From sequence record MN158209.1: a stretch of 51,031 nt of DNA; one strand, 5' to 3'. The notes under the pieces were generated by a model, which saw only the letters and a program-made list of their open reading frames with translations, did not search any database and was not told where the DNA came from. This document shows positions 21,661 to 43,145 of this stretch, one piece after another. The translations under genes and the position numbers were made by a program. The DNA comes from Escherichia phage BEK7. How positions within the stretch are numbered: the first letter of the stretch is position 1; every line of letters begins with the position of its first letter.

Positions 21661-21850
21661 TAAGAACAATAAATAATCAATAAAATAGATATATACATAT
21701 AAAATCAATAGTTTATTTATTTATGTATGTATATTTGTTTTTTCTTGTTATCTGTGTTTCTTGTGGTTTTGGTTGTTTGTGGTGATTTTTCTTTCTGAGT
21801 ATCTGTATGTGCCATCATTCATGTGTATGTATATAATCCGGCGTATCTGA
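21661..21850. repeat. AT-rich divergent control region, copy A
   Basis: Low-complexity AT-rich tract with TGTATGTATAT, ATAAAATCAATA, TGTTATCTGT, GGTGATTTT blocks shared with 42950-43145. Confidence 0.6.
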
Positions 21851-21959
21851 TAGAACAAGGGAACAAGAAAAATAACACATATTAATCATTAACTTACGCG
21901 TCAAATTTGTTTTATTGCCATCTGAGAACGTTTAGAAAACAGAAAAAACAAAACAACTA

Positions 21960-21987
21960 TTGACTAAATCAACCAAATGGCTACAAT
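21960..21987 (+). promoter_or_regulatory. sigma70-like promoter (TTGACT-16-TACAAT)
   Basis: -35 TTGACT at 21960-21965, 16-nt spacer, -10 TACAAT at 21982-21987, about 30 nt before ATG 22018. Confidence 0.55.
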
Positions 21988-22017
21988 GCACACACAAAGC
22001 AACGAGGAGCATTAAAG

Positions 22018-23076
22018 ATGAGTGATTTTAACGCCTATACTAGCGAAGAAATGAGCAATGAGCTTTATCATGATCCTAACGCGTGGACGGCTGAATACGT
22101 CAGCGGTTCCAGCCTGGCTGAGATTTACAGCACTTGCCCGGCGTACTGGAAGTACAAGCCTCGCCAGGAAACCAAAGCACTTGTTTTCGGTACGCAGTCG
22201 CATACCAATTTTGAAAGCAAGGAGCTTTTCGAAAAAACCTATCGCCGTGCGCCAGCACCAGAAGACTTTAAGGATCTGATAACCAGCCAAACGGCGCTTG
22301 CTGCAAAGCTAAAATCATTTGGCCTGAAAGGTACAACAGGAAAGACTTACCCTGAACTTATAAAAATGTTGGTTGACTGCGGAGAAGACCTTAACGTCAT
22401 GTGGTTAATCGACATGATCGCAGAAAGTCAGGCGAGGGCCGATGGGGTTCAGTTAATCGAAGCTAAAGATTACGATGCTTGCGTGGCAATGCGACAGGTT
22501 CTGGAATCAATACCGGAACATAACGCATGCATGAATAGCAAGACAGCACAACGTGAATTATCGTTGTTCGGTGAAATTAACGGCGTAAAAGTCAAAGTGC
22601 GATGCGATCACGTTGACGTAACAAAGAACGTCACCGCAACGCTGATTGATGGTTACGATGAAAAAGGTCAGCCGATTTGCCGCGATATTATTTATCCAGA
22701 GGCCATTGTGATCACAGACTACAAAACTACAATGAGCGCGAATCCGGCTGAGTTTATGCGCCTGGCTTACAATCACGGCTATTATCTTAAAATGGCGTTG
22801 CAATGTGATTTATTCAGGAAAGCGTATCCAGAAGAAAAGCGACCTATAGTTGTGCGCCTGTTAGCGCAAGAGAAGAAAGAGCCTTATTTGCCGTTGGCTT
22901 TCCGCATGAACAACGAGCAATTGAAGATTGGGCGCATTCAGTACATGAGCGTGATTAACCAGTTTGCCATGTGCCAGCATCATGACGTTTGGCCTTCGTA
23001 TTCAAACGGTGAGCCGGAGGTTTGCCTTGATACTCCTGATTGGGTGCGACGCCAGTTTAAGCAATATCTTATTTAA
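22018..23076 (+). CDS. putative recombination exonuclease (PD-(D/E)XK-like)
   Basis: 352 aa, first gene of exo-SSAP-SSB arrangement; ITDYKTT resembles a D-x-K nuclease core; assignment tentative. Confidence 0.45.
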   Translation: MSDFNAYTSEEMSNELYHDPNAWTAEYVSGSSLAEIYSTCPAYWKYKPRQETKALVFGTQSHTNFESKELFEKTYRRAPAPEDFKDLITSQTALAAKLKSFGLKGTTGKTYPELIKMLVDCGEDLNVMWLIDMIAESQARADGVQLIEAKDYDACVAMRQVLESIPEHNACMNSKTAQRELSLFGEINGVKVKVRCDHVDVTKNVTATLIDGYDEKGQPICRDIIYPEAIVITDYKTTMSANPAEFMRLAYNHGYYLKMALQCDLFRKAYPEEKRPIVVRLLAQEKKEPYLPLAFRMNNEQLKIGRIQYMSVINQFAMCQHHDVWPSYSNGEPEVCLDTPDWVRRQFKQYLI

Positions 23077-23157
23077 ACAGCACAAATAGCTAAACAAATG
23101 AAAAATGCGGTGTTATAATTCACCGCATAAGTTAACAACAAGCGTAAGGAAATAAAC

Positions 23158-23436
23158 ATGGAAAACAAACAAGTTTCAGAGGTAGCAGTTCATATCAATA
23201 ATTTTGCAACTGGCATGGCTATGTTGCTTCGTGACTTTGTAGCGCCCCTTGACCCAACGGCAGGCGCAGAAGAAATGGAGTACATCAGAAAAGTAATGGA
23301 TGCAGTCGATAACGTCGTACTCATTGCAACAATGAGCGAAGACAACGAGGAAGCAATCAAGGCGGTAAAAGAAAGTTCTGATCGCATGATGGAAAATCTG
23401 ATTAAATTACACACCAAAGAAGAAACAAAACATTAA
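23158..23436 (+). CDS. hypothetical acidic protein
   Basis: 92 aa, Glu/Asp-rich; flanked by small hairpins. Confidence 0.4.
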   Translation: MENKQVSEVAVHINNFATGMAMLLRDFVAPLDPTAGAEEMEYIRKVMDAVDNVVLIATMSEDNEEAIKAVKESSDRMMENLIKLHTKEETKH

Positions 23437-23481
23437 CAGCAATAAGGCGGCGAAAGCCGCCATGAATTACGGGGATTAATC

Positions 23482-24138
23482 ATGAAACTATCAGAGCAAT
23501 TCGACAAGGTTTTACCAGCACTGCATAAGGCGCGTAGTTTGTTTGTAAAGGTAAAGAAGGATAAGCAAAACACTCACCTTAAAAACCGTTACGCAACACT
23601 TGATGCCGTACTTGATGCAATCACCCCAGCACTGAACGATAACGCGCTAATGTTGATGCAGGATATGATCGAAAGCGAACAACCTAACCGCATCAAAGTT
23701 GAGACAACAGTTCTTCATGTTTCCGGTCAGTGGGTGAAATTTTACGCAGAGCTACCAATAGTTAAAAACGATCCTCAAGGTGTCGGATCTGCATTCACAT
23801 ACGCGCGTCGTTATGCAGCAGCAGCAGCATTTGGCTTAAGCCAGGCAGACGATGACGCTCAGATTGCCGTTAAATCTGCAAACGACTGGAAGCGTGACAT
23901 TGAGAAATGCGAAAGCGTAAACGAATTACAAGAAGTGCTAAAATCAGCATGGAAGGCAAGCGATCCGGCAAGCAAGCAGGTAATTAAAGAGCATTACGAA
24001 AAGCGCAAGGCAGAACTTGAGATCGGAAAAGCACGAGGATTTAATCCAGCGCAACCAAAACAAAATCTTGCCGCTCAAGACGTTGACACAAAAAACGACG
24101 AGCAAGTAAAATCACAAAGAATAACTGACTTTGAATAA
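23482..24138 (+). CDS. Erf-like single-strand annealing protein
   Basis: 218 aa between exonuclease and SSB; segment [14 protein letters not shown] and overall size consistent with ERF family. Confidence 0.55.
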
Positions 24139-24143
24139 TTGAC

Positions 24144-24168
24144 ATGGGGCGCTTGCGCCCCTTTCTTG
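24144..24168 (+). terminator. hairpin terminator-like element
   Basis: GGGGCGC-TTG-CGCCCC followed by TTTCTT. Confidence 0.45.
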
Positions 24169-24182
24169 CAGGAGAATAAATA

Positions 24183-24635
24183 ATGCATATTATTACTGGT
24201 GAGATCCGAAAAGAGCCGCGAGTAAAGCAAATGCCTAACGGCAGCACACTTTATGTGGTTGAACTTTCAGAGCGATACAAAGATAAAGATGGAAACTGGC
24301 AATATACAAACTACAGTTTCTTTTTTAATGCTAAAACAGAAGGTCTTAAGGGTTGGTATGATGAGGCATTCCAGGTTGGCAAGGTTATTTCTGTATCTTG
24401 CGACACGCTGCGCATTGAAACGCGTGAATATAACGGAAATCTGTATTCAAGTTTAATGCCAGGAGGATTTGCAAATCTTATCTTCAGTCAGCGCGGGGAA
24501 AGCCAGCAACAATATCAGCAGCGAACTCAAGGAGGATGGGGGCAGCAACAACAACAGAATCAACAGCAACAACCGCAACAGCCAAGACAAAGCAATCAGC
24601 CTCCTATGGACTTTGATTCTGACATCCCATTTTAA
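24183..24635 (+). CDS. ssb: single-stranded DNA-binding protein
   Basis: OB-fold-sized N-terminus, Gly/Gln-rich linker, C-terminal acidic tail ending DFDSDIPF. Confidence 0.85.
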   Translation: MHIITGEIRKEPRVKQMPNGSTLYVVELSERYKDKDGNWQYTNYSFFFNAKTEGLKGWYDEAFQVGKVISVSCDTLRIETREYNGNLYSSLMPGGFANLIFSQRGESQQQYQQRTQGGWGQQQQQNQQQQPQQPRQSNQPPMDFDSDIPF

Positions 24636-24678
24636 CACCCCATTTTAACATATAAGATACAAAGATATAACAAAAGAC

Positions 24679-24963
24679 ATGGTTGACGCCGCAAGGCGTC
24701 ACCTATCCTACGATGCAGAATCAGGAATTTTTACATGGATTCTTCCCACGTCGCAGAGCGTAGAGAAAGGTTCACAGGCCGGATCGCTTAGGAATGGATA
24801 CATAGGTATAAACATCCATGGCGAGCGATTTCAGGCGCACAGGCTTGCTGTTGCCTTCATTGAAGGCTATTTGATAGGCGATGTTGAAATTGACTACATA
24901 GACAGCAATTCTCTTTGCGAGTTCAGTTTGATGCGCATTCAACTTTCCGGTAGTCATTATTGA
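24679..24963 (+). pseudogene. degraded HNH homing endonuclease remnant
   Basis: HRLAVAFIEGYLIGDVEIDYIDSN resembles the HNH_3 core but His of DH is replaced and the ORF truncates after 94 aa. Confidence 0.45.
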
Positions 24964-25175
24964 CAACATGCAGCTCATGCTACCTATTCCGTTAAAATCA
25001 GTCATTGCAGATTTCATTATTGATATTGGAGAATAACCATCATCAGCTATTGTGTGCGCTCTCTCTGACAGGTCTTTAACTACCTGATCAATTCATTCAC
25101 TTTTCGTCATTTTCTTTTCCTTCAGGAATAGATATAAAACATTTGTAAGTGATATGTAAGAAACTGGCATAAAGA

Positions 25176-25207
25176 CGAAAAAAGGCGCAGCCGTAGCCGC
25201 GCCTTTC
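25176..25207 (-). terminator. rho-independent terminator (minus strand)
   Basis: Stem AGGCGC...GCGCCT with A-run on + strand (T-run on minus) just downstream of tail fibre stop. Confidence 0.6.
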
Positions 25208-25219
25208 GGTTAAATTTTG

Positions 25220-28325: not shown

Positions 28326-28799
28326 TTAGCAATTAGTGCTTTCAGGTTTATACAGGAATCCGCCAGGCTCATAATCTGACATTCTTACCACTCGCAACAT
28401 TTCACGCTTATCACATCTCTTTGTGAGCGGTTTGCCATTGGAATCAAATCGCAGGTCTGGACGACAGAATGATGCGCGATAGCCTTGACATCCATATTTT
28501 TTGTAATCGTTATGCACCTTTTGAGCGCCAGCAGCTGAAATCATACCGCGAACACGCCACTGATTTACAGTTTGCTGGCTAACGTTAAGACGTTTTGCCA
28601 TTGCTGATACACTTCCGTAATACTCAATAAGGATGTCAAGTCGCGCTTTTAGTCCGGCGCGCACTTCATCTTTTAAAACATAGTATCCTGTAGGGCGCTT
28701 GCGTTTCTTCTTATCCTTGCCTCGTCTGGTTCCGTTATTGCCATTAATTGTGCGCTTGTCAATCTTGCCAGTTGATACCGCGATTCGCTGTTCTTTCAT
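28326..28799 (-). CDS. HTH DNA-binding protein (putative transcriptional regulator)
   Basis: Lys/Arg-rich N-terminus and helix-turn-helix-like SVSAMAKRLNVSQQTVNQWRVRG; divergent from helicase gene. Confidence 0.5.
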   Translation of the reverse strand: MKEQRIAVSTGKIDKRTINGNNGTRRGKDKKKRKRPTGYYVLKDEVRAGLKARLDILIEYYGSVSAMAKRLNVSQQTVNQWRVRGMISAAGAQKVHNDYKKYGCQGYRASFCRPDLRFDSNGKPLTKRCDKREMLRVVRMSDYEPGGFLYKPESTNC

Positions 28800-28811
28800 T
28801 ATTCATTCTCC

Positions 28812-28831
28812 AATAGCATTTTTTGTTAAAC
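28812..28831 (+). promoter_or_regulatory. conserved 21-nt promoter-like element (copy)
   Basis: AATAGCATTTTTTGTTAAAC; TATTAT 21 nt downstream; about 55-75 nt before helicase start. Confidence 0.5.
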
Positions 28832-28888
28832 GATGATTTAATGATTGTGTATTATACACGCCAAATGGCATTACTCAAAGGTTTTAGA

Positions 28889-30916
28889 ATGATTCCAAAC
28901 ATTGAAAAGCAAATATCAGCACTTGGTGAAGCGGTAATTAAATCCATTCAGGAGCGATTCACTGTTGGCGATATTGTGCCTTACCCTTACCAGTGCGTTG
29001 CATACGCTGAGATCGCAAAGCGTATGAAAAATTATGAGCATCCATTCTTTGTTAAAGCGTCGGTATCGTCTGGCAAAACATTGATGTTTGCAATGGTTGC
29101 TCACCAGTGCCGGAAAATGTGCTTAAAAATGATGGTTCTTGCTCGCCAGGCTGAGATTGTGGATCAAGATTCTGAAGAGATAACAAATCTTGGCGTGCCG
29201 AACTCCATCTATTGTGCAGGACTGAAGACAAAAAGCGCATACTTTCCGATCGTTGTTGGTTCTGAGGGAACTGTAGTTAATGGACTGTTTAAAGCGCTTG
29301 GCGACTATGTTCCGCACGTTATCGGGATTGACGAGTGTCACCAGGTGGATTGGGAAGACCTTGCCGACGCCATAGAGAAAGACGAGTCATTTTTACAAAT
29401 GACGACAAAGAAAGGCGAAAAAGTACAAAATCCAGATTATGACGTAGCGAGCGATAACGAATGCGAAGAATTCCTGATTGGTGAGGATGGCTTGCCAATG
29501 GAGGGAACAGGCCGCACACAATACACTGTCATTATCATGGAAATGATGCGACGTTGCAGGAAAGCATATGGTCATGAACTGCGCATCTTTGGTATGACTG
29601 GATCGGAGTTTCGCGGCGTAGTTCCAATACTGGTAGAAGATAAAAAACAAAAAGGATTCTGGCGCGAACAGGTTACTAATATTGATACCAACTACCTTAT
29701 CAAGTTTGGCTCGGTTGTGCCTACCAATTTTGGCGACGTTGGCGATCTAGGTTATGACCTTTCAGAGTTTGAGGCATCCAGTGAGGACGGCGTTGAAGAC
29801 TTTGACCAGAAAACTCTGCGCAAGATGGAGGAGAAGATCCATAATGATGCAACCATGACGCAAAAAATCATGTCACGCGTGCATGAGATCTGCAAAGACC
29901 GCAACGGCGTGCTGGTAACTTGCGCAGGTGAGCGTCACTGTAAAGAGGCCGCTGCCGCACTTCCGACAGGCACGACATACAGAATCATCACTGGCAAGAC
30001 GGGAGAGAAACAGCGTAAGGAGTGGTTAAGGGAAGCATTCGAGGGAAAGGTAAAATACATTTTCCAGGTTCAGGCGCTAACAACTGGCGTTAACCAGCCG
30101 TTATGGGATACTTCCGTCATTCTGCGTAAAATCAGATCACTAACGTTGCTGATTCAGCTTTTAGGGCGCGGTATGCGACTGCTTAAGAAATGGCATATTG
30201 AGCAAGGATTCACGAAAAACGATCACCTTGTTCTTGATTTCGCCGGAACGATGGACGAGCTAGGGGATTTATATTTCGATCCTATACTTGAGCAAGCGCA
30301 ATTCCAGAAGCGATTCACCAACGGGAAAGATCCGAAAACTTGCCCGATATGCAAGACGCTGAATAGCTACTACGCGCGCCGTTGTATGCACGTAGACGAA
30401 AGCGGAAAACGGTGTGAGCACTTCTGGACGTATCGCGAATGCACAGACCAGGTAGATCCGAGAACGAAAAAGATTATTCATCGCGGTTGCGGAACAAAAA
30501 ACGACGTAGTGGCGAGAGTATGCCGTTGTTGCGATATTTCTCTTGTCGATCCTAACGAGAAGTTAAGCGGCAAGCACTACACGAAAAACGATTACATGAG
30601 TGTTAAATCGTTCCGTGTTGACATGACAAAAAACCAGAAAGGTATCGTTTTTTGCTATGAGCTTGATTATCATGGGGAAACATTCAAGGCATACGAAAGA
30701 TTTTTCCCTGAGTCAGAAAGCAACATTTGCCGGACGATATGGAGAAAAATAGCATTGCAGCACATACCGGATCGCAAGATTGCTGGTATGGTGGCGAGCT
30801 ATAGAAATGCGCGTAAAATTATGGCATACGCCCATCACATCATGCCGCCAGTACGCGTGACGCATCGCAAGACGGCGAAAGGAGAGGACAACATTGCTAA
30901 ACGGGAGTTTGCTTAA
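28889..30916 (+). CDS. SF2 DNA helicase (DExH box)
   Basis: Walker A VSSGKT, DECH box (IGIDECHQV), C-terminal Cys-rich zinc-finger-like region; start could also be 28868. Confidence 0.75.
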   Translation: MIPNIEKQISALGEAVIKSIQERFTVGDIVPYPYQCVAYAEIAKRMKNYEHPFFVKASVSSGKTLMFAMVAHQCRKMCLKMMVLARQAEIVDQDSEEITNLGVPNSIYCAGLKTKSAYFPIVVGSEGTVVNGLFKALGDYVPHVIGIDECHQVDWEDLADAIEKDESFLQMTTKKGEKVQNPDYDVASDNECEEFLIGEDGLPMEGTGRTQYTVIIMEMMRRCRKAYGHELRIFGMTGSEFRGVVPILVEDKKQKGFWREQVTNIDTNYLIKFGSVVPTNFGDVGDLGYDLSEFEASSEDGVEDFDQKTLRKMEEKIHNDATMTQKIMSRVHEICKDRNGVLVTCAGERHCKEAAAALPTGTTYRIITGKTGEKQRKEWLREAFEGKVKYIFQVQALTTGVNQPLWDTSVILRKIRSLTLLIQLLGRGMRLLKKWHIEQGFTKNDHLVLDFAGTMDELGDLYFDPILEQAQFQKRFTNGKDPKTCPICKTLNSYYARRCMHVDESGKRCEHFWTYRECTDQVDPRTKKIIHRGCGTKNDVVARVCRCCDISLVDPNEKLSGKHYTKNDYMSVKSFRVDMTKNQKGIVFCYELDYHGETFKAYERFFPESESNICRTIWRKIALQHIPDRKIAGMVASYRNARKIMAYAHHIMPPVRVTHRKTAKGEDNIAKREFA

Positions 30917-31386: not shown

Positions 31387-31799
31387 TAACTGATAAAGGC
31401 GATTATCTTGAGTTTTACGAAAGGGATCCAACCGACACGAGAAGGGAAGTTAATCACCAGATAGATAGTTTTCAGTGGTTGACTTATGCTCATCCTTATT
31501 TGCTGGCGTGGCATACGGTAAACGAGAATGAGAAGTCTAAAGCAACGGCGATGATTGATCAGCAGTCCGGTTTGGTTAAGGGAGTAAGCGATTTTATCAT
31601 CCTGATTGGTACAAAAGGCCGCTACCCGTTTGCGGCTATTGAGATGAAGCGCGTCAATAAGTCCGGAAAGGGAAAGGCTTCACCAGTCAGCAATGAGCAA
31701 AAAGCCTTCTTGCGACGTGTGCGTGAGATTGGCGGATTCGCCGCTGTAACATACGGATATAAGCAATTCATGATCGCTGTAGAATACATGATGAAATAG
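31383..31799 (+). CDS. VRR-NUC domain nuclease
   Basis: GVSDFIILIGTKGRYPFAAIEMKRVN...EQKAFL pattern (D...E.K) characteristic of VRR-NUC. Confidence 0.7.
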   Translation: MITDKGDYLEFYERDPTDTRREVNHQIDSFQWLTYAHPYLLAWHTVNENEKSKATAMIDQQSGLVKGVSDFIILIGTKGRYPFAAIEMKRVNKSGKGKASPVSNEQKAFLRRVREIGGFAAVTYGYKQFMIAVEYMMK

Positions 31800-31815
31800 C
31801 ACTTTTTGTTAAAAC
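31795..31815 (+). promoter_or_regulatory. conserved 21-nt promoter-like element (copy)
   Basis: AATAGCACTTTTTGTTAAAAC; TAG at 31797-31799 is the stop of the VRR-NUC ORF; CATAAT 22 nt downstream. Confidence 0.5.
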
Positions 31816-34740: not shown

Positions 34741-34772
34741 GGAGGCTTGATTTTTAAGTCTCCTTTTTTTAT
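34741..34772 (+). terminator. rho-independent terminator
   Basis: GGAGGCT-loop-AGTCTCC followed by 7-nt T-run. Confidence 0.6.
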
Positions 34773-34840
34773 TTATTTTTTCAGCACAATGTTTAAAATA
34801 CAATCATCACTATTGACATTTGAATAAAGAGGATCTAAAT

Positions 34841-35056
34841 ATGAAAGATTTTTTGAACGCTGCAACGTCCGGCACGGGCGGCGCATCAATCACTGGAGCA
34901 GTAACAGGACAAACGGCAATTGCAATTGCCAGCTTCGTATTGATGGCTATTTTCGGCGTATGGGGCGCTTATCTGCGGTGGCGTGATAGTAAAGCCTTCC
35001 AGAAGGCGCTTGATAGTGGTGACTTTAAAAAAGCAATTGAAATCAGGGGTAAATGA
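34841..35056 (+). CDS. holin (pinholin candidate)
   Basis: 71 aa with one clear hydrophobic TMD and charged C-terminus; RBS AAGAGGA; directly upstream of and overlapping the endolysin gene. Confidence 0.6.
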
Positions 35057-36601: not shown

Positions 36602-36986
36602 ATCTTTTCCTTAGAGCTTCTATTTGTTGTCTATTAGCATTTGGCGTAAACAATTCTTCATCACTCATTTCTCCGATCCGTAAAACATCTCTTACCCATT
36701 CGTTTTGCATACCTTCCAGGCTGTAAAGTTCAAACGAGAAAGGGCGATTTGCTGATCCTTTCTTACACCAGAACTTTCCACAAACTCCATCAAGATAACC
36801 AGCAGTCATCATTCTTGCGCAAAACTCTTTTGAAACGGCAGTCGCAAACATTCTCGGCGTAAATCCTGCGGCCCTTGCGAGCCGCTCACATTCTCTGTGC
36901 TGAAAGATAAATTTTGCTATATGTTGACGCGTAAACCATTCGAATGACTCACACCAGCGATAAATATCAAGTAGAAACACGATCAC
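36588..36986 (-). CDS. hypothetical protein
   Basis: 132-aa ORF (true start probably internal ATG). Confidence 0.35.
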   Translation of the reverse strand: MIVFLLDIYRWCESFEWFTRQHIAKFIFQHRECERLARAAGFTPRMFATAVSKEFCARMMTAGYLDGVCGKFWCKKGSANRPFSFELYSLEGMQNEWVRDVLRIGEMSDEELFTPNANRQQIEALRKRYGLE

Positions 36987-38566
36987 CCCAGCAATGTTGG
37001 ATTTACGAAAACAACGCCATTAATCACACAAATATAATTTCTTTCCTCAAGCATCGGAAGCAGTTGCGTTTCCATGCGCTTCATTACGCCAGCCTGACCA
37101 ACAAAAGGCTTAACTTTTCGTGCTGCCTCATATATGGCGCGCACATTCAAGATTCCCTTATTAGCCTTGCCGTGTCGAGTGATGATCTCGATTAGTTTAC
37201 CCATTTCAGCATCATCACCAGCATAGCCAGAAGCGTTTGCGGCGCTAATGTATGTTTTGCTCAACTCGCTAAACATCAGCAATGCTTCCTGAACGGTTTC
37301 AACCTCAATCTCTTTAGACTTCTGAGGGTATCCACCAGGATTAAACCAATTGCGGATAGTGTGCAAAACCGAAGCAATCCTGATCACCTGCTTATCCATT
37401 TTGCCAAGCGCACCTCGCAGCATTGTATGCGAATACTTTCCGCCATCAGCAAGATGCGGTTCCATCTCCTGACGAGCCATGTTAAGCACTCGCATTGCTG
37501 ATTTGCTGATCTTAAGCTGGATGTTTGATTCGCTCATTATGTTATGGATCAGCTTGAAATATTGGCTTTTCAGTTCCCCATCAACAGGTTCATAAGTAGA
37601 GTCACCGTTATCATCAACAAACTTTCTACGGCCTAAAAATGATTCCTCACGCACAAGCAAATAACGCTCACTTACACCGATACCTCGCGATCCTGCATCC
37701 ATGATGGCATTGATTGTTTCATCCTGGGCAATTACCGCCATACATCCAAGAGCTTTAAAACTCATATTGTTGTCAGCGTTTGCGCGAGCTATAGAAACAT
37801 GACCGTGATCCCATGCTTTCAGCACAAGTTCGCTGTTTGTTTTGCGTTCGCTATTGGCATATGTCAGACCTAAAAGGCTGTTAATACTCGTTGCCTCGTC
37901 TGAAATTACAGCAAAGTTACCCTGGCGATTGTTGATTCTTGCAAGTCCTTCCGGCGTGGTATCGGACACAGGGAAAACAATGTCACACATCTTTTCAAGT
38001 TTTTCTTCAAGATCTTCTTTCTCCTGGTATAGCGATTCCATGTCAGCGCCAGATCGCTCGCTTTTCATCTCTTTTGCAAGACCTGCCAACTTTGCCTGAA
38101 TCTTTTTTCGTTCCTTCTTTCGCTGATCATTAATTCTTTCTACTTCAGCAACCATAGGAGCAAGCGCCAGGCTGTTAACGGCAGATTTACCAGTTGAAGG
38201 AGGCTGGCTTGTGACAACATAAAGAGCGGTCGGCTGATCCGTTCCGTGATACTCAACAGTGAAGCGTCCAAGCATTGCAGCAGACACACATCCGATAAAA
38301 TGCATATATGCCGATGATTCAGGGAACTGAACTGATCGAGCAATGTTGCGCGCCAACTTACCAACAACATCAACATCATTGCCAAGAGAAATTATAGGGT
38401 AGCGATCGTTTCCGTTATTAACATCATTAACCCCACCCCAAAAGCTGGACGATTGACGGTATCCGTTAGCCTGAATGGACACGCGCACCGGAGACAATCC
38501 TTGCGCATCAGCTAATTCTATAATTTGTTTTGGTGTTAGTTTATTGGTTTCAAACGAAAAATTCAT
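36983..38566 (-). CDS. P-loop NTPase protein (possible replication protein)
   Basis: ATG after GGAG; Walker A-like SQPPSTGKS; about 527 aa; no other motif recognised. Confidence 0.45.
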   Translation of the reverse strand: MNFSFETNKLTPKQIIELADAQGLSPVRVSIQANGYRQSSSFWGGVNDVNNGNDRYPIISLGNDVDVVGKLARNIARSVQFPESSAYMHFIGCVSAAMLGRFTVEYHGTDQPTALYVVTSQPPSTGKSAVNSLALAPMVAEVERINDQRKKERKKIQAKLAGLAKEMKSERSGADMESLYQEKEDLEEKLEKMCDIVFPVSDTTPEGLARINNRQGNFAVISDEATSINSLLGLTYANSERKTNSELVLKAWDHGHVSIARANADNNMSFKALGCMAVIAQDETINAIMDAGSRGIGVSERYLLVREESFLGRRKFVDDNGDSTYEPVDGELKSQYFKLIHNIMSESNIQLKISKSAMRVLNMARQEMEPHLADGGKYSHTMLRGALGKMDKQVIRIASVLHTIRNWFNPGGYPQKSKEIEVETVQEALLMFSELSKTYISAANASGYAGDDAEMGKLIEIITRHGKANKGILNVRAIYEAARKVKPFVGQAGVMKRMETQLLPMLEERNYICVINGVVFVNPTLLG

Positions 38567-38638: not shown

Positions 38639-38897
38639 TGATCCGCTCTATGCTAACTAAGATTTTTTCTGGTTCCTTTGCACTATGGAAATGCGCGGTT
38701 ACAGAATCAACAAAATCAAAGTAAAGTGATTTGTGATATGAGAATCCAATCAGCCAACCTACCGCCGTTTTTTTGATGGGCCTGACTATATCGCCAGGCT
38801 TGAAGGTTTTTGTTGCTGAATAAGTCACCTTATAGCGATATTCAGTCTTGATCATGAGACTTCTCTTTTCCGTGGTTTTCGTGGAAACCATGCTCAA
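38634..38897 (-). CDS. hypothetical protein
   Basis: 87-aa ORF. Confidence 0.35.
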   Translation of the reverse strand: MSMVSTKTTEKRSLMIKTEYRYKVTYSATKTFKPGDIVRPIKKTAVGWLIGFSYHKSLYFDFVDSVTAHFHSAKEPEKILVSIERIK

Positions 38898-39360
38898 TCA
38901 ACAACCTATCTATTGCTGATATAGCCGACTCAATACATGTGTGCCATCCACCATAAATCAATCTACCATCAACCTTTACATTAACCTTGTACTTCCCCCT
39001 ATTTTCGTACCAGATAATTCCTATATGACCGATTGTATTGTTAGATCGCATGGATAAATTTCGTCCGTTTATCGACCTTGTAACCAATCTCAAGTTTTCT
39101 ATCCTGTTATCAGTTCTGTCATGGTTTATGTGATCAATTTCCATTCCTTGAGGAATATCTCCGTTGTGCATAATCCAAACAACCCTGTGAGCATAAATTT
39201 GTACACCTTCTACAGTTAGCTTTACATACCCTTTGCTGTTTACGGTTCCAGCCTCAAGACTGCGTTTTCTACCCTTTCTCCACTCCTTCCAGTAAAGAAT
39301 ACCGTCGTCGTATCTTAGTTGGCTTAGAAGTATTTCGCTTGAAATTTTGCAGTTGCACAT
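38842..39360 (-). CDS. HNH homing endonuclease
   Basis: HRVVWIMHNGDIPQGMEIDHINHDRTDNRIENLRLV. Confidence 0.85.
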   Translation of the reverse strand: MCNCKISSEILLSQLRYDDGILYWKEWRKGRKRSLEAGTVNSKGYVKLTVEGVQIYAHRVVWIMHNGDIPQGMEIDHINHDRTDNRIENLRLVTRSINGRNLSMRSNNTIGHIGIIWYENRGKYKVNVKVDGRLIYGGWHTCIESAISAIDRLLIEHGFHENHGKEKSHDQD

Positions 39361-39707
39361 TCAAAACCATCCTCGCAGCGATATAGAGTAAAGCGATCAC
39401 CTTGTTCATCGTAAACATACCCAGCAACAGCGCCAAGCACTCTACCACTTTCCACTTGATACCTCTTTCCTTGCTTGAAAGTTTTCTTAACGCTAAGAGA
39501 ATGGTCAACGAAAGTGCAAAGTATTGTTTTTGTCTTGATATGACGATAGTCAGACTCAACAGCGTTTTGCCACTTGCTACCCTTTGTAATGCTCTTTACC
39601 TGGAATTGTTCCAACTCGATCACATCATCGCTACCAGCAATTTTTTCGTATACAGCTTTATAACGACCGTTCATCAAAACGTTGGTTTTATTGCAGATAA
39701 CTTTCAT
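39324..39707 (-). CDS. hypothetical protein
   Basis: 127-aa ORF about 70 nt downstream of an element copy. Confidence 0.4.
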   Translation of the reverse strand: MKVICNKTNVLMNGRYKAVYEKIAGSDDVIELEQFQVKSITKGSKWQNAVESDYRHIKTKTILCTFVDHSLSVKKTFKQGKRYQVESGRVLGAVAGYVYDEQGDRFTLYRCEDGFECATAKFQAKYF

Positions 39708-39762
39708 CGTTTATTTCTCCTTTCGTTTCGGTGAAGTGATTATGCCAGGTTTTTACACCTGG

Positions 39763-39783
39763 CTTTTAACAAAAAGTGCTATT
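39763..39783 (-). promoter_or_regulatory. conserved 21-nt promoter-like element (copy)
   Basis: Minus-strand AATAGCACTTTTTGTTAAAAG; TAG is the stop of ORF 39779-40465; hairpin CCAGGT...ACCTGG then CATAAT. Confidence 0.5.
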
Positions 39784-40465
39784 TTGAGTTTGCCTCAAAT
39801 ACGGCGCGAGCAAATCCTCGCGGAGTGAGTGAGCGTAGTTGCTTTGTTCTGGCAGACTTACCGCCTAAAAACTTCCAACCCCAAAAGAACATTACGCCCT
39901 CATCATTGCATAACGGCTTGCGTTCGGGTTCTGTAAATCCGTTGCCGCACCAGATAGCAGTCCTTTTTGTGTATCCATCCTTTAGCGGCATCTTGGGGTG
40001 AAAAGATCCATCGGATTCGTCCAGGTAGTTACCAAAATCGCGCGGATTGAAATAAAAATCAGGCTTGCGCCATAGCGTTGATAGTCGGCCTACAGGATTC
40101 TCAGCCATCCAGGGAACACCGAAATGATTCCCGACAGTTTCAACCATGATTGCATTTTTGAGCGCGACCTGAATATCATCATCGCTTCGCAAGTGCTTAC
40201 TTCCTGATTGGGCAAACATGGTGCAGTCTGGAAATCCAAATACAATATCTGGTTTTGGAATATCCATCTTACTGATTCTTTCAATGAAATTTTCATCAAT
40301 CCACATATTCACATAATGAAGATTTTCATGCTTCATCTTGATGAAATATTCTCCGTGGTTGCCTTCGTCAGCGTTGAAGCAATAGCATTGATAGCCAGCC
40401 TTCGCATATTCCAGCAACATAATTCCAGATCCATCAAACATTGAGTAAGCGATTTTTTGTTTCAT
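39779..40465 (-). CDS. C5-cytosine methyltransferase-like protein (compact, no obvious target-recognition domain)
   Basis: AdoMet motif I-like YSMFDGSG, PC-like FGFPDCTMFAQSG, ENV-like AENPVG; only 228 aa. Confidence 0.45.
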   Translation of the reverse strand: MKQKIAYSMFDGSGIMLLEYAKAGYQCYCFNADEGNHGEYFIKMKHENLHYVNMWIDENFIERISKMDIPKPDIVFGFPDCTMFAQSGSKHLRSDDDIQVALKNAIMVETVGNHFGVPWMAENPVGRLSTLWRKPDFYFNPRDFGNYLDESDGSFHPKMPLKDGYTKRTAIWCGNGFTEPERKPLCNDEGVMFFWGWKFLGGKSARTKQLRSLTPRGFARAVFEANSK

Positions 40466-40474
40466 CTTTCAGCC

Positions 40475-40699
40475 TCAAAACGGAAAGCATATGGGGCAGT
40501 TCGGATCAAAATTGCAACCACAATCATTAACAATCATAGTTGGATCTGCAAATGCAGCGCCGCATTCATGATCCATATCCATTTCACCCAACGCATCATC
40601 AAGCGTCCTGATCTTATATGCAACTTCAAGCGCCGCCTCTTTATTTAGTCCGGCATCTTCTGCCATTTGAAGGCGTTCAAAAAAACCGTCCTGACTCAT
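40475..40699 (-). CDS. hypothetical Cys-rich small protein
   Basis: 74 aa with HECG...CGC...CPIC cluster. Confidence 0.4.
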   Translation of the reverse strand: MSQDGFFERLQMAEDAGLNKEAALEVAYKIRTLDDALGEMDMDHECGAAFADPTMIVNDCGCNFDPNCPICFPF

Positions 40700-40809
40700 T
40701 TCATAAACTCCTTAATAACAGCAAGAATAATTACAAGACCAGCAGTAAAAACAAGAAAACCGACAAGGCCAATCATAACACCAAATAAAATATCAAGCGC
40801 CTTAATCAT
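40696..40809 (-). CDS. hypothetical 37-aa membrane peptide (below ORF-track cutoff)
   Basis: Translation MIKALDILFGVMIGLVGFLVFTAGLVIILAVIKEFMK from reverse strand; stop overlaps next start (ATGA). Confidence 0.3.
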   Translation of the reverse strand: MIKALDILFGVMIGLVGFLVFTAGLVIILAVIKEFMK

Positions 40810-40819
40810 TTATTCACCA

Positions 40820-40850
40820 TTGATAAAACGGGAGGCAGCAACCTCCCATT
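40820..40850 (-). terminator. hairpin terminator-like element (minus strand)
   Basis: GGGAGGC-AGCAA-CCTCCC followed on minus strand by GTTTTAT. Confidence 0.4.
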
Positions 40851-40856
40851 AATTAA

Positions 40857-41123
40857 TCAGACAGCCTTCCAGCTTTCAATGAACATGCTGTTCTCTTCAA
40901 GAAGTTTAATCAATTCTTCGCGAGTATATTTGCGAATTTTACTACCAGGATGCGAGCCAACAACAAACACACCTTTACCGCTTGTGATTGTTAACTGGTT
41001 GATTCCACAAGATTGATCAATTTTCACAGCGACGCGGTGATGTGCATCAACAGTGTGCATGATGTTAGTTACTTTAGCTTTCATTGCGCGATCCTCATTA
41101 TATTTGGTTTGGTAACTATACAA
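40857..41123 (-). CDS. hypothetical protein
   Basis: ORF in track. Confidence 0.35.
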   Translation of the reverse strand: MYSYQTKYNEDRAMKAKVTNIMHTVDAHHRVAVKIDQSCGINQLTITSGKGVFVVGSHPGSKIRKYTREELIKLLEENSMFIESWKAV

Positions 41124-41258
41124 GGTTTAAGAAATATTGTTTAGCAATTCGTGATATCAGTTGAAATGGCTATGGCGTTTTGCTCGCTTTCCGTCTCCGC
41201 CATAATGATCATTAGAAACAGCAATCATCCAGGAATTATGGAATATTATTAGCTTCAT

Positions 41259-41537
41259 CTAATTAATACCAACCAAGTTAAAACTTACATTTTTTGTTGA
41301 GAATACATACGCCTCAACAGCGCCGCCAAATACGCGAATTTTCCCATGTCCGTACTGCGTATTCATATTGCGCCAAACCGTTATATTAGAACAGAACGCG
41401 CTACCAGTCTTAATGAGATTATCCATTTCTCTTCTTAGATCACGATAATCAAGCCAGAATCTATAAGCGCGTTGTTTAATTCGCGCCGACTTGATTATCT
41501 CGATTGCGCTATTGAAATCATTCTTTTCATATGCCAT
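41259..41537 (-). CDS. hypothetical protein
   Basis: ORF in track. Confidence 0.35.
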   Translation of the reverse strand: MAYEKNDFNSAIEIIKSARIKQRAYRFWLDYRDLRREMDNLIKTGSAFCSNITVWRNMNTQYGHGKIRVFGGAVEAYVFSTKNVSFNLVGIN

Positions 41538-41734
41538 TAGATGATCTCCATATAGGTTTCAAAGCCAGTCAACTTGAACAAGCCGTTTTCACATTTTCGC
41601 ACGTTCCAAGTCAGCCCTGAGTGGTACGCCTCCATATCATCAAGATCAATGGTGATTTCAACGCCTTTCTTAAATAATCCTTTTTCGTGAGATTTGTCGC
41701 GCTTAACCACTTTAACATCAACCTGTGTTTCCAT
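41537..41734 (-). CDS. hypothetical protein
   Basis: Start moved to ATG (METQVDV); about 68 nt downstream of an element copy. Confidence 0.35.
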   Translation of the reverse strand: METQVDVKVVKRDKSHEKGLFKKGVEITIDLDDMEAYHSGLTWNVRKCENGLFKLTGFETYMEII

Positions 41735-41791
41735 TTTCAAATCCTCGCATTCGTTGTCGATGCGCTTAATATACCAATCAGAGGCGCATCG

Positions 41792-41812
41792 GTTTTAACA
41801 AAAAGTGCTATT
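41792..41812 (-). promoter_or_regulatory. conserved 21-nt promoter-like element (copy)
   Basis: Minus-strand AATAGCACTTTTTGTTAAAAC; TATATT lies in the loop of hairpin GATGCGC...GCGCATC. Confidence 0.5.
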
Positions 41813-42171
41813 TAGTCCAGGAATTCGATTTCACGTTCTCCAGTTAGCGGATCTACAAGCCAGAATCCGAGCGGCTCGCCGTAAACACCGCCATAGAATC
41901 CAAGCGCCGACAGATCTTCACCTTTAACGAATGCCAGGTTTCCGCAACGACTTACGTGAGACACGTTAACGATAACCGGAAAGGTGCGATCCTTAAACGC
42001 AGGCCGCAGGGCGTAACACCCGTTATTGAGCAAACGTGCTTTGCGCTTAACTGGAATAGGTGCATTGATTCGCGCCATCTCTATTTCTCCATTGTTGTTA
42101 ACCATGTTTAACGGCATCCAGAACATCACAGGATTCGTTAATAAATTTTGCCATGCGCTTATCATCACCAA
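41812..42171 (-). CDS. hypothetical protein
   Basis: ORF in track. Confidence 0.35.
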   Translation of the reverse strand: MVMISAWQNLLTNPVMFWMPLNMVNNNGEIEMARINAPIPVKRKARLLNNGCYALRPAFKDRTFPVIVNVSHVSRCGNLAFVKGEDLSALGFYGGVYGEPLGFWLVDPLTGEREIEFLD

Positions 42172-42337
42172 CAGGGATTAGCGCGTTAAACTCGAGTTTG
42201 CTACTGAATACCGTAACTTTATGAAACGATGCGAACGGCATCGACGGGAACTCCACTGTTTGCGTCAAGATCCGCAACCCCATCTTTTTGGCCCTTACCT
42301 GGGCCTCTGCAAGTTCAAAATCCATCTCATTAATCAT
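42098..42337 (-). CDS. hypothetical protein
   Basis: ORF in track. Confidence 0.3.
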   Translation of the reverse strand: MINEMDFELAEAQVRAKKMGLRILTQTVEFPSMPFASFHKVTVFSSKLEFNALIPVGDDKRMAKFINESCDVLDAVKHG

Positions 42338-42606
42338 TTCTTGATCTCCTCAGCAATAAACTTCAATACCTGGCGCAAAAACACTTCGTTGTTGATGGTC
42401 GCTGGCAATTCTTCTTTCACTTCTTGCGGCAGATATATATTGCCGTGCCAGGTCAAGCAATCGTAGTTGATACGATAAGAGCAAAGCCATTCGCAATCGT
42501 TATCTGCTTCCCAAATGCAAAGCTGCATTACGTCGCCAAAATCCTCAACAGTCAGATCCAGACCGTGACGCTTAGCGAAGTTGAAAGTGGTTTTGCTGAT
42601 GTTCAT
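42334..42606 (-). CDS. hypothetical protein (first gene of leftward cluster)
   Basis: 90-aa ORF, RBS GGAGAT, about 65 nt downstream of an element copy. Confidence 0.4.
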   Translation of the reverse strand: MNISKTTFNFAKRHGLDLTVEDFGDVMQLCIWEADNDCEWLCSYRINYDCLTWHGNIYLPQEVKEELPATINNEVFLRQVLKFIAEEIKK

Positions 42607-42664
42607 TGCTATCTCCTGAGCGTTTCGTTTCGATGTGTGTAATGTACCCGATCAGGCGGATTCA

Positions 42665-42685
42665 GTTTTAACAAAAAGTGCTATT
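42665..42685 (-). promoter_or_regulatory. conserved 21-nt promoter-like element (copy)
   Basis: Minus-strand AATAGCACTTTTTGTTAAAAC; TACATT 22 nt downstream. Confidence 0.5.
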
Positions 42686-42949
42686 TGCCGACTGGTTATT
42701 ATTCCATCTATTCCATTAATCAGGAATAACAGGAATAACTCATTCGCGATCACCTGGATTGTGAGACTTTGAGTTTGATCAATTTTAATCAGTTGATTAA
42801 CTTTTTGTGCGGAGGGGATAGAGAAACACGGTCCTCTCGCATCCTTTCCGGCAATCCTGGCGAGCAATTCTGTTTCTTTCGTTCCCGTTGTTATGCCAAA
42901 TAGCCCTCCGCAACTGGCGATAACAGAAATCGCGTTGACATAACAAAAA

Positions 42950-43145
42950 AAACAAATATAAATATATATATATACCCATAAAATCAATAAGTTAGTTATA
43001 TATATAATTATAACTGTTATCTGTTGTTATCCTTGTTTCATGGGTATATTGGTAGGTGGTATTGTTTTTGTGAATATGTATGTGTGATTGTATGTTTTTT
43101 AATCAATGGTGATATGTGGTGATTTTGTATGTATATATGTATGGG
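42950..43145. repeat. AT-rich divergent control region, copy B
   Basis: Shares ATAAAATCAATA, TGTTATCTGT, GGTGATTTT, GTATGTATAT blocks with 21661-21850. Confidence 0.6.

Follow-up and report, generated by a model that had tools for sequence, protein, structure and literature searches.

Paired AT-rich modules in divergent early control regions of a T1-like coliphage: paralogous candidates for origin-type assembly sites

Two intergenic regions of this phage, A (21661-21850) and B (42950-43145), are paralogous copies of one module, and we tentatively read that module as an origin-of-replication-type assembly site set inside divergent early promoter regions. The window that we analysed (51,031 nucleotides) is the whole genome of a T1-like coliphage (Drexlerviridae). 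For T1-like phages, no replication origin has been identified (PMC11447400, PMC7718038); within the T1 family, whose origins are still unmapped, the two modules are the strongest candidates to date. An earlier, sequence-only reading had picked out both regions as diverged copies. Beyond it, we found that the pair is conserved family-wide, that B adjoins the pac end and that the leftward promoters form a distinct phage-specific class.

Two copies of one module

Local alignment against shuffled controls confirmed that the AT-rich regions are true diverged copies and ruled out a compositional coincidence of AT bias. Segments 21658-21811 and 42938-43084 were identical in 117 of 157 columns (74.5%; blast2seq E = 7e-18). 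The alignment scores 100. Dinucleotide shuffles gave 24.8 ± 3.9 (z = 19), and shuffles in 30-nt blocks, a control that preserves the local composition gradient, gave 30.6 ± 6.7 (z = 10); 0 of 500 shuffles attained the observed score with either control. A profile search of the genome with the element returned two matches, exactly A and B. The four short blocks noticed earlier were all found, in identical order in A and B:

ATAAAATCAATA, at 21699 and 42978
TGTTATCTGT, at 21746 and 43015
GGTGATTTT, at 21781 and 43118, with one further, unrelated copy at 17907
GTATGTATAT, at 21725, 21825 and 43127

Colinear blocks also reach toward the promoters, with 21824-21835 matching 43126-43137 and 21936-21950 matching 43260-43274. 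GC content is 25.8% in A and 24.5% in B against 43.6% for the genome, and the two lowest-GC 120-nt windows of the genome fall in them. Duplex stability is also lowest there: the two weakest 100-bp windows of the genome (-102.0 and -102.3 kcal/mol; genome mean -135.4, sd 6.7) fall in A and B, about 5 sd off the mean and with a clear gap before the third-lowest site (-111.2 kcal/mol).

Both copies follow a shared plan. After phased AACA sites comes an AT-rich dyad centred on an IHF-consensus site; beyond the dyad lie three phased TGTT sites (period 10-11 bp in A and B alike), a G/T-skewed stretch and a near-consensus early promoter. The flanking gene strands agree with the divergent setting described for them. 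To one side of A, Cor (phrog_1119) and its neighbours are transcribed leftward (minus strand); to the other, the recE-like, Erf and SSB genes are read from the plus strand. The features of region A are:

21548-21590, minus strand: Cor-cassette leftward promoter of the repeat class, ATAGCACTTTTTGCTAAA (21590-21573), 19 nt, TATAGT (21553-21548)
21591-21618, plus strand: left array of three TGTT sites, period about 10-11 bp, TTGTTATTTTTTGTTTTCCGGTGTTATC, conserved upstream of recE in relatives
21655-21672, plus strand: left-arm AACA sites CCAACATAAGAACAATAA, inverted relative to the TGTT arrays (alignment columns 27-42)
21678-21747, no strand: AT-rich core A, an imperfect dyad and least stable duplex
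21735-21761, plus strand: right array of three phased TGTT sites, TTGTTTTTTCTTGTTATCTGTGTTTC, with invariant GT columns; includes the block TGTTATCTGT
21762-21835, plus strand: G/T-skewed stretch, its 3' end the conserved TGTATGTATATA (21824-21835)
21838-21880, plus strand: second CCGGCGTA motif, then AACA sites GAACAAGGGAACAAGAAAAATAACA, as direct and inverted repeats
21935-21987, plus strand: AACA sites touching the -35 (GAAAACAGAAAAAACAAAACAAC), then the recE promoter TTGACT-16-TACAAT (21960-21987); colinear with 43260-43274

The dyad arms of core A (21678-21704 and 21721-21747) are 78% complementary, with the IHF-consensus site AATCAATAGTTTA at the centre (21703-21715) and a -10-like hexamer, TAAAAT, at 21681-21686. 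Region B lies between small-gene clusters, leftward on one side and rightward on the other:

42667-42684, minus strand: leftward repeat-class element ATAGCACTTTTTGTTAAA, with TACATT 20 nt downstream, driving the leftward early and helicase cluster
42868-42895, plus strand: left array of TGTT/CGTT sites CTGTTTCTTTCGTTCCCGTTGTTATGCC, conserved among B orthologues
42905-42957, plus strand: CCTCCGCAA motif and AACA sites ATAACAGAAATCGCGTTGACATAACAAAAAAAACAAAT
42951-43018, no strand: AT-rich core B, a dyad with duplex instability
43014-43040, plus strand: right array of three phased TGTT sites CTGTTATCTGTTGTTATCCTTGTTTC
43041-43150, plus strand: G/T-skewed stretch with TGTATGT repeats, its 3' end carrying TGTATGTATATA (43126-43137)
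43243-43305, plus strand: A-tract and AACA segment AAAACAGAGAAAACA (43260-43274), then the early promoter TTGACA-17-CATAAT (43277-43305)

The arms of core B (42951-42972 and 42997-43018) are 86% complementary; the central block, with the IHF-consensus site AATCAATAAGTTA at 42982-42994, is strongly conserved across B orthologues. The IHF consensus is low in information, with 9 matches in the genome where 4.6 are expected.

Iteron-like repeats had been suggested for both regions, and each indeed contains short repeated sites: the two intergenic regions, 2.3% of the genome, contain 10 of its 17 spaced xAACA-N4-7-xAACA pairs. Curved DNA, by contrast, did not hold up as a common trait of the AT-rich cores. 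The wedge model put the genome's strongest bend at 43255, within the A-tract/AACA segment immediately upstream of the region-B promoter -35; region A peaked no higher than the 97th percentile, and AA/TT helical periodicity was outstanding in neither core. The predicted sigma70 promoters are both present, each to the right of its region. Strong intergenic sigma70 matches clear of a 21-nt repeat number three in the genome; these are two of them, and the third drives a phage Cro-like HTH regulator. The leftward promoters belong to a separate phage-specific class with this repeat, ATAGCACnnnTTGnTAAA, for which a pattern search found 20 copies against 0.78 expected. The repeat family has been reported for phage TLS (PMC11447400).

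Conservation and co-evolution in T1-family phages

Both modules are kept at fixed positions in every T1-family phage examined. Core A, at 11-19% GC, was found in the window and in all 44 loci fetched around recE homologues, a median of 321 nt upstream of recE, and core B lies 3.3-5.6 kb upstream of the helicase gene in 33 related loci. In T1, TLS and MSK, too, A and B are the two least stable duplexes genome-wide. Strand asymmetry to the right of the core is conserved, with G exceeding C in 88-91% and T exceeding A in 98-100% of orthologues, percentages that exaggerate the support in such phylogenetically non-independent sets. Many relatives also conserve a second IHF-consensus site between the module and the recE promoter.

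Judged from these sequences, the A and B copies co-evolve. Within genomes they scored 100, 63, 66 and 104 against each other, compared with 21.5 for shuffles, whereas between lineages A scored 20-61 against A (average 38) and B 21-81 against B (average 41). The flanking short sites vary by lineage yet are common to both copies of one genome. That A and B resemble each other more than they resemble orthologues of other lineages points to a shared, lineage-specific binding factor, although a shared transcription factor would fit the pattern equally well and gene conversion would also be expected to produce it. Distant relatives, in which the MCM-like helicase is 37-39% identical and the gene order differs, carry one core of this type, immediately upstream of their helicase gene. 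Here too the core is the weakest duplex of its locus, and a different 7-mer, (T/C)CTTACC, flanks it, with 8 of 13 and 10 of 13 locus copies inside the element.

Origin-type assembly and competing readings

Origin function is plausible: the anatomy and conservation of the modules, the co-evolution of A and B, and the association with the helicase gene seen in distant relatives are all consistent with it. The phage encodes a Zn-ribbon, DnaG-type primase, a Cro-like HTH protein beside it, and an MCM-like DUF3987 helicase with a winged helix at its C terminus; Foldseek matched the helicase model (pLDDT 88.8) best to MCM2-7 subunits. DUF3987 proteins have been classed as replicative helicases (PMC4889955). 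Copy B heads the operon containing the helicase gene and adjoins the packaging end; copy A immediately precedes the genes for the exonuclease, the annealing protein and SSB. We infer protein binding, melting and initiation, in a series of steps. IHF would bend the centre of the AT-rich dyad, after which a lineage-specific phage DNA-binding protein, possibly the winged helix of the helicase or the primase-adjacent Cro-like protein, would fill the helically phased AACA/TGTT sites in both arms. The core, as the least stable duplex of the genome, would then open and admit the helicase and the DnaG-type primase, with extension by host polymerase. Transcription from the flanking early promoters may aid opening or priming, as perhaps may the -10-like hexamer on the core's left margin, which reads into the G-rich strand. 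Copy A might serve as a second origin, or as a bound fork-stalling site as proposed for SPP1 oriR.

Some observations run against an origin. The short repeats of A and B are degenerate and are absent from the promoter region of the HTH protein, the IHF consensus is low in information as noted above, and cores A and B contain no DnaA boxes and no GATC clusters. Ordinary promoter regions also bear AT-rich intergenic islands, as SPP1 shows (PMC6316719), and A and B do lie between promoters.

The main rival is a purely transcriptional architecture, which we consider possible but rather unlikely. The modules would then be regulatory regions, duplicated upstream of the two main immediate-early promoters and without a replication role: IHF and a phage regulator at the phased sites would shape the DNA and switch early transcription on and then off, and the easily melted core would be a supercoil-sensitive element or an insulator between divergent promoters. 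Each module is indeed preceded by a repeat-class leftward promoter and followed, 250-290 bp downstream, by one of the three strong non-repeat sigma70 promoters, but a core-promoter distance of 250-300 bp is far for a UP-type or class I/II activation site. The homology is colinear up to the AACA sites touching each -35, and the strongest predicted bend lies immediately upstream of the region-B promoter, as would suit regulation; the second IHF-consensus site before the recE promoter does so as well. However, regulation does not call for such extremely unstable duplexes (A and B are the global minima of four genomes) or for the conserved strand skew, and most other promoters of the genome lack such a module. 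A Cro-like regulator exists, driven by the third sigma70 promoter, and a shared regulator fits the co-evolution equally well, yet AACA/TGTT sites are absent from its own promoter region (28800-28890). Moreover, although gene order is rearranged in distant relatives, the element has remained beside their helicase gene.

It is improbable, in our view, that element B is the terminase-binding part of pac, like lambda cosB, with element A a relic or secondary site. The relevant neighbour is:

42699-42810, no strand: packaging-end-equivalent segment, assigned solely by position relative to T1, TLS and MSK

This segment holds TATTCC/GGAATA inverted repeats (42699-42738), two GATC sites, GATT/TGAG repeats and an IHF-consensus palindrome (42786-42798); the CDS annotated in it gave no family match. 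The deposited T1 and TLS records begin 205-215 bp left of core B, with the terminal repeat of T1 annotated from position 1, and the published PhageTerm terminus of MSK (36,862) maps some 140 bp to the left of the MSK core, through which packaging proceeds rightward. This geometry is like that of lambda cosN to cosB, and element B has an IHF-consensus site. Nevertheless, the termini fall outside the core in all three phages, which places the packaging cut 140-215 bp left of core B and not inside it. An equally conserved, co-evolving second copy 21 kb away, without a GATC/GATT cut region, is ill-suited to a single pac, and to our knowledge extreme AT-richness is not usual at pac or cos binding sites, which also counts against this role. 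In favour of a packaging role, a secondary source ties ATATA repeats to the T1 pac site (PMC8421802).

We regard it as very improbable that the modules encode a non-coding RNA or small protein from the -10-like hexamer: an exact top-strand TATAAT occurs at the left edge of 32 of 44 A and 16 of 33 B elements, region B has TTGACA (42935-42940) 16 nt upstream of TATAAA (42957-42962), and the downstream composition is consistently G/U-rich in the transcript sense, but an Rfam search of the genome gave no match, single-strand folding was no better than in shuffles (z = -1.1, -0.9, -0.7 and +0.3), the ORFs are all short, low-complexity and overlapping, and the G/T-rich part differs between orthologues in both length and sequence. 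Bottom-strand TATAAT is found on the right side as well (13 of 44 A, 11 of 33 B), so part of this signal is mere dyad symmetry.

Comparison with known systems

The iteron origins of lambda (ori), pSC101 and R6K gamma combine an IHF site with an AT-rich unwinding element. A and B likewise place an easily melted AT-rich segment beside helix-phased short repeats, with an IHF-type site between the arms, and their repeat sequence is lineage-specific, as expected if a repeat co-evolves with its binding protein. Unlike iterons, the repeats are very short (4-5 nt core) and degenerate and form inverted arrays around the core, and the module lies neither within nor beside an initiator gene and lacks DnaA boxes. 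The T7 primary origin and T4 oriF and oriG are transcription-activated, with promoter elements beside an AT-rich unwinding element and several origins per genome. A and B share the adjoining promoter elements and the plural copies, and their non-template G>C skew downstream would similarly favour a persistent RNA-DNA hybrid; their embedded promoter, however, is a -10-like hexamer without a -35 and is not present in all copies.

Satellite phage P4 has two cis sites several kilobases apart, ori and crr, with repeats of one short motif, an arrangement that A and B resemble. The P4 octamer, TGTTCACC, is similar to the TGTTCAC sites of TLS-type phages, and the Zn ribbon of the T1-family primase is common to primase-helicases. 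The P4 alpha helicase belongs to superfamily 3, whereas that of the window phage is MCM-like, and the DNA-binding domain of alpha had no sequence match in the helicase, primase or HTH protein. Lambda cosB and P1 pac both have protein-binding repeats near the packaging end, with an IHF site between them. Region B alone shares this, with an IHF-type site between repeats 140-215 bp from an end whose packaging passes through it, but here the termini lie outside the core and a co-evolving second copy has no neighbouring cut region.

Bacillus phage SPP1 has two separated, similarly organised copies, oriL and oriR, with repeats beside an AT-rich unwinding element; one phage protein binds both, and one copy is intergenic (PMC6316719). 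There is no sequence relationship to A and B. SPP1 replication relies on gp38, a dedicated origin-binding protein, together with a loader and a DnaB-type helicase, where the window phage encodes its own primase and an MCM-like DUF3987 helicase; binding and initiation are established for SPP1 and proposed for A and B. The fork stall proposed at SPP1 oriR would let replication turn to concatemer synthesis by way of the exonuclease, annealing protein and SSB; in the window phage, the genes immediately downstream of copy A are those of the exonuclease, Erf and SSB.

Two diverged copies of one AT-rich module

Two intergenic regions of the window, region A at about 21.7 kb and region B at about 43.0 kb, had been described from the sequence alone as diverged copies of an AT-rich control region. 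We confirmed this observation. GC content is 25.8% over 21661-21850 and 24.5% over 42950-43145, against 43.6% for the genome, and the four short blocks quoted for the pair were all found where they had been placed, in the same order in both regions. The best local alignment (21658-21811 with 42938-43084) has 117 identities in 157 columns and scores 100. Dinucleotide shuffles score 24.8 ± 3.9, and shuffles within 30-nt blocks, which preserve the AT-to-GT gradient, score 30.6 ± 6.7; 0 of 500 shuffles reached the score in each of these two controls, which rule out compositional coincidence as the source of the likeness. Additional colinear blocks (21824-21835 with 43126-43137, and 21936-21950 with 43260-43274) extend the homology to the two promoters named in the same reading, both of which are present. 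A profile search of the window matched only these two places and revealed no third copy. Alignment, shuffles, blocks, profile and promoters therefore establish a relationship that goes beyond AT bias. The surroundings of the two regions are as follows.

21523-22017: intergenic region A
Left of region A, (-) strand: Cor gene (phrog_1119) and two membrane-protein genes
Right of region A, (+) strand: genes for a recE-like PDDEXK exonuclease, Erf and SSB
Left of region B: leftward cluster, with the DUF3987 helicase gene 4.3 kb away
Right of region B: rightward small-gene cluster, reaching the terminase genes 8 kb away

The 51,031-bp window spans the whole genome of a phage assigned to Drexlerviridae, Tempevirinae, Hanrivervirus, in a rotation that puts the start of the small terminase gene at position 1. 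The record of BEK1-23 (MN158211), to which BEC3 (MN158217) is nearly identical, begins at the equivalent of window position 42916, within region B.

Layout, duplex stability and conservation

We derived a plan of the module from both regions, their internal repeats, 44 loci around recE homologues and 33 loci with a region-B equivalent; B orthologues were collected via the helicase gene, the first rightward gene being poorly conserved. An alignment of 17 B and 3 A elements backs one common plan, given here from left to right.

Part 1: three TGTT sites
Part 2: CCGCA or GGCGTA motif
Part 3: two or three AACA sites, repeating every 9-11 bp
Part 4: -10-like hexamer, 12-13 nt beyond the AACA sites (A, 21681-21686; B, 42957-42962)
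Part 5: AT-rich dyad (the core; A, 21678-21747; B, 42951-43018), arms 78% complementary in A and 86% in B, with a central block that fits the IHF consensus WATCAANNNNTTR (A, 21703-21715; B, 42982-42994)
Part 6: three TGTT sites, repeating every 10-11 bp and conserved in the alignment
Part 7: G/T-skewed stretch of variable length, terminated by the block TGTATGTATATA
Part 8: second CCGCA-type motif with AACA sites
Part 9: sigma70 promoter

The four quoted blocks correspond to the IHF-type block, the TGTT array, a piece of the G/T stretch and the right boundary block. The suggestion of iteron-like repeats also held: 10 of the 17 spaced xAACA-N4-7-xAACA pairs of the window fall within the 2.3% of the sequence that the two regions occupy, and three phased TGTT sites are kept. 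The CCGCA/GGCGTA motif was considered as a specific repeat of the window and set aside, being too degenerate to stand out genome-wide. To the right of the core, strand asymmetry is conserved: G outnumbers C in 91% of the A elements and in 88% of the B elements, and T outnumbers A in 98-100%. The IHF consensus WATCAANNNNTTR, which at a binding site would have an AT-rich tract upstream, has exact matches at both dyad centres (21703 and 42982). This consensus is weak (9 matches in the window versus 4.6 expected), and a match to it occurs at the core position in 14 of the 44 A and 18 of the 33 B elements; T1-type and TLS-type A cores have none there. No DnaA box (TTWTNCACA) lies in A or B, the whole window holding 3 matches versus 7.3 expected, and GATC sites do not cluster, with only one or two per whole intergenic region and none in a core. 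We therefore discarded a DnaA-dependent, oriC-like origin.

Nearest-neighbour energies in 100-bp intervals (kcal/mol) showed that A and B are the two least stable places of the genome, at -102.0 and -102.3, about 5 s.d. from the mean of -135.4 (s.d. 6.7). The third least stable interval (-111.2 kcal/mol per 100 bp) lies at 34750-34850, just upstream of the holin gene. In three T1-family comparison phages the two copies are again the two stability minima, likewise about 5 s.d. from the mean: T1 (-97.0 and -101.1; third, -114.9), TLS (-102.5 and -105.2; third, -111.7) and the Rtp-like MSK (-101.8 and -105.0; third, -112.3). An 80-nt stretch of 11-22% GC is present in 45 of 45 A cores and 34 of 34 B cores.

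The duplication is old: T1, TLS and MSK all retain both copies (A-B alignment scores of 66, 63 and 104; shuffles, 22-23). The two copies co-evolve across deep lineages. Within-genome A-B scores in the four lineages (100, 63, 66 and 104) mostly exceed the scores between orthologues of different lineages (A-A, 20-61, mean 38; B-B, 21-81, mean 41), the exception being TLS, whose A-B score of 63 is lower than the 81 scored between its B copy and that of the window. Each lineage has short flanking sites of its own, common to both copies of one genome.

Window: AACA/TGTT
TLS: GAACA/TGTTCAC
T1: TAACA/TTACG, 10-bp period
MSK: TTACGC/GTTACAT

This pattern of scores and flanking sites suggests that the copies are read by one lineage-specific factor, are homogenized by recombination, or both. 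Among close relatives (Tempevirinae) the likeness of copies within a genome is weak, with diagonal ranks from 1 to 10, and concerted evolution at that level was rejected; it is clear only across deep lineages. GenBank records MG065640-MG065687, labelled "Campylobacter phage" with C. jejuni as host, are 76-90% identical to regions A and B and have T1-like genome sizes; they are probably mislabelled or contaminant T1-like coliphages. No related element was matched in E. coli genomes or plasmids, including satellites and prophages.

Two distant phage contigs from ENA encode a helicase 37-39% identical to that of the window in a different gene order, with the helicase, primase, SNF2-type helicase, exonuclease, annealing protein and SSB genes in one block. 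In each, one AT-rich core immediately precedes the helicase gene (ERZ1524532 NODE_9, locus positions 9500-9960; ERZ1524542 NODE_76, locus positions 6650-7010), and this core is the least stable site of its locus (-102.6 and -103.3). The 7-mer (T/C)CTTACC flanks these cores in both orientations, with 8 of 13 and 10 of 13 locus copies inside an element of 360-460 bp. The architecture thus stays with the replication genes even as the repeats differ in sequence. Iterons behave in just this way, and the distant arrays are clearly iteron-like.

Predicted promoters and the probable packaging end beside the modules

Each module ends on the right in a predicted sigma70 promoter with spacing within 16-18 nt, and the leftward promoters beside A and B belong to another class, marked by the 21-nt repeat ATAGCACnnnTTGnTAAA. 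The corresponding sites, together with those of a third divergent region (28800-28890), are listed below.

21960-21987 (+): sigma70 promoter right of region A, 10 of 12 consensus positions
43277-43305 (+): sigma70 promoter right of region B, 11 of 12 consensus positions
28878-28851 (-): sigma70 match TTGAGT-16-TATAAT for the Cro-like HTH gene, third divergent region
28813-28830 (+): 21-nt repeat for the SNF2-type helicase gene, third divergent region
21573-21590 (-), 31796-31813 (+), 42667-42684 (-), 44101-44118 (+) and 49059-49076 (+): examples of ATAGCACnnnTTGnTAAA

A whole-genome scan for sigma70 matches at 10 or more of 12 positions gave few intergenic sites, and all but 21960(+), 28878(-) and 43277(+) overlap a 21-nt repeat. 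In the third divergent region, which is short and not AT-rich, there are no AACA arrays. The repeat ATAGCACnnnTTGnTAAA, given as unexplained in the TLS paper (PMC11447400), occurs 20 times in the window versus 0.78 expected. Of 18 copies read in detail, 17 are co-directional with the downstream gene and most have a -10-like hexamer (CATAAT, TATAAT or TATAGT) 18-21 nt downstream. The repeat has the look of an upstream element that marks a phage-specific class of promoters, and the interval between it and the -10 often contains a G+C-rich dyad. The promoter at 43277-43305 sits inside a 203-aa ORF that starts at 43252, which makes the annotated shorter start at 43345 (DUF7174 protein) the credible one.

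The proposal that curved DNA is a common property of the cores was not borne out. In a wedge model, both cores are unremarkable, also in helical periodicity, and the bend of region A peaks at the 97th percentile, left of the core. The strongest predicted bend of the genome is elsewhere, at 43255 (43243-43276; 88 degrees over 42 bp; genome mean 22, s.d. 12), just upstream of the -35 element of the region-B early promoter. This bend, homology that is colinear up to the -35 element, and a second conserved IHF-type site upstream of the recE promoter would all suit modules that serve the two strongest immediate-early promoters purely as transcriptional architecture. Such a role requires neither the 250-300 bp between core and promoter nor the extreme duplex instability nor the strand skew; it is the main alternative to the origin reading given below, and we consider it somewhat unlikely as the whole explanation.

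In T1, TLS and MSK, the B core also lies near a mapped or assigned packaging end. The T1 record begins at the start of the annotated terminal repeat, 215 bp left of the B core; the TLS record begins at an AGATTT assigned as pac, about 205 bp left of the core; and the MSK terminus, published from PhageTerm at 36,862 (PMC8421802), lies about 140 bp left of the MSK core, inside a GATT/GATG repeat segment. By position, the window equivalent is approximately 42745-42810, which holds two GATC sites, GATT/TGAG repeats and an IHF-consensus palindrome, TTAATCAGTTGATTAA, at 42786-42798. The CDS annotated across this segment at 42652-42867(-) has no Pfam or PHROG family; it probably does not represent a gene, and the phage's own pac cut probably falls there. 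Nearby, the inverted repeats TATTCC...GGAATA (arms 42699-42714 and 42723-42738, 81% complementary) have a counterpart, TATTCCA...TGGAATA, at the equivalent place in T1, and may be a terminase or regulator site. The sole related remark in the literature searched is second-hand, a mention in PMC8421802 of ATATA repeats of T1 in relation to pac. In MSK, T1 and TLS the terminus is not inside the element, and region A has neither a known terminus nor a matching segment; the packaging cut thus adjoins core B and lies outside it. The nearness of the cut is what a packaging-accessory role for B would predict; these positions and the existence of copy A make such a role improbable.

An RNA or peptide product of the modules is highly improbable, with no Rfam match in the window, folding no better than in shuffles (z from -1.1 to +0.3) and only overlapping low-complexity ORFs. 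From the first two results we also rejected a cruciform, hairpin or structured RNA, and the third led us to reject small ORFs as the module's role. The roles proposed for the modules, including the origin role considered below, are not mutually exclusive.

A candidate origin and its counterparts

Our preferred but tentative reading, held at just short of even confidence, is that the modules are two copies of an origin-type assembly site, one in each of the two divergent early promoter regions. Both contain a low-stability AT-rich segment with short repeated sites beside it. The reading is based on the unwinding-element property, found in all lineages, the arrangement of repeats about an IHF-type centre, the way the two copies co-evolve, the tie to the helicase gene in distant relatives and the lack of another origin candidate in the literature, where papers of 2020 and 2024 report that no replication origin was found in T1-like phages (PMC7718038, PMC11447400). 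In the literature searched, we found no transcriptome, TSS or origin mapping for Drexlerviridae and no published description of the A/B pair or of a T1-like origin.

The proteins that could act at such a site include the DUF3987 protein (36986-38566, (-) strand). A confident model of the 527-aa protein (pLDDT 88.8) shows an AAA+ core together with a winged helix at the C terminus (residues approximately 450-525). In structure it matches MCM2-7 subunits best and Orc1/Cdc6 less well. Since homologues are about 527 aa long, the true start is probably an internal Met and not that of the 545-aa ORF. The model agrees with the classification by Kazlauskas et al. 2016 (PMC4889955), in which DUF3987 proteins count as MCM-related replicative helicases bearing a winged helix at the C terminus. 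The stretch at 27.3-28.8 kb encodes both a Zn-ribbon primase and the Cro-like HTH protein (28326-28796, (-) strand). At an origin of this kind IHF would bind, the core would melt, the helicase would be loaded and transcription might provide priming; the repeat-binding initiator has two candidates, the helicase's own winged helix and the Cro-like HTH protein. In P4, ori and crr are served by an alpha-type primase-helicase whose C-terminal origin-binding domain recognises TGTTCACC repeats, which the TGTTCAC sites of TLS-type phages resemble. We rejected a P4-alpha-like origin binder and an ori-crr system: PDB sequence searches with the helicase, the primase and the HTH protein gave no match to the P4 alpha origin-binding domain, and the fold search for the helicase gave MCM.

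A more specific proposal, which we regard as speculative and unlikely in its full form, is that the pair is the origin system of the T1 family. The MCM-type (SF6) helicase of the phage, or a partner protein, would recognise both of the co-evolving modules, each with its unwinding element, IHF site and repeats. Through copy B, initiation would be linked to the early operons as well as to the packaging end, and copy A, before the exonuclease, Erf and SSB genes, would be a second origin or a fork barrier that triggers recombination-driven concatemer synthesis.

T1 is a classic coliphage and a common laboratory and fermentation contaminant. What was a vague AT-rich region has become two precisely bounded, family-conserved, co-evolving candidates with defined sub-elements, and the IHF-type site, phased repeats and unwinding core make the old question of the T1 origin directly testable. 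Should the modules prove purely transcriptional, they would nevertheless define how the family's immediate-early promoters are built. If the origin reading is correct, a bacterial virus would have an origin of familiar design (repeats, an unwinding element and IHF, in two copies as in SPP1) at which an unusual, MCM-like helicase acts, and the two sites would stay alike within each genome. It would show how an MCM-like phage helicase reaches DNA in a bacterium and whether a second origin copy governs the concatemer switch, as proposed for SPP1, and would offer a handle for engineering or blocking T1-like phages. SPP1 is the closest known case. Its oriL and oriR are two similar sites of repeats and an unwinding element, both bound by one phage protein, and oriR has been proposed to stall forks, handing over to an exonuclease, an annealing protein and SSB (PMC6316719); here, copy A lies directly before the same set of exonuclease, annealing protein and SSB genes.
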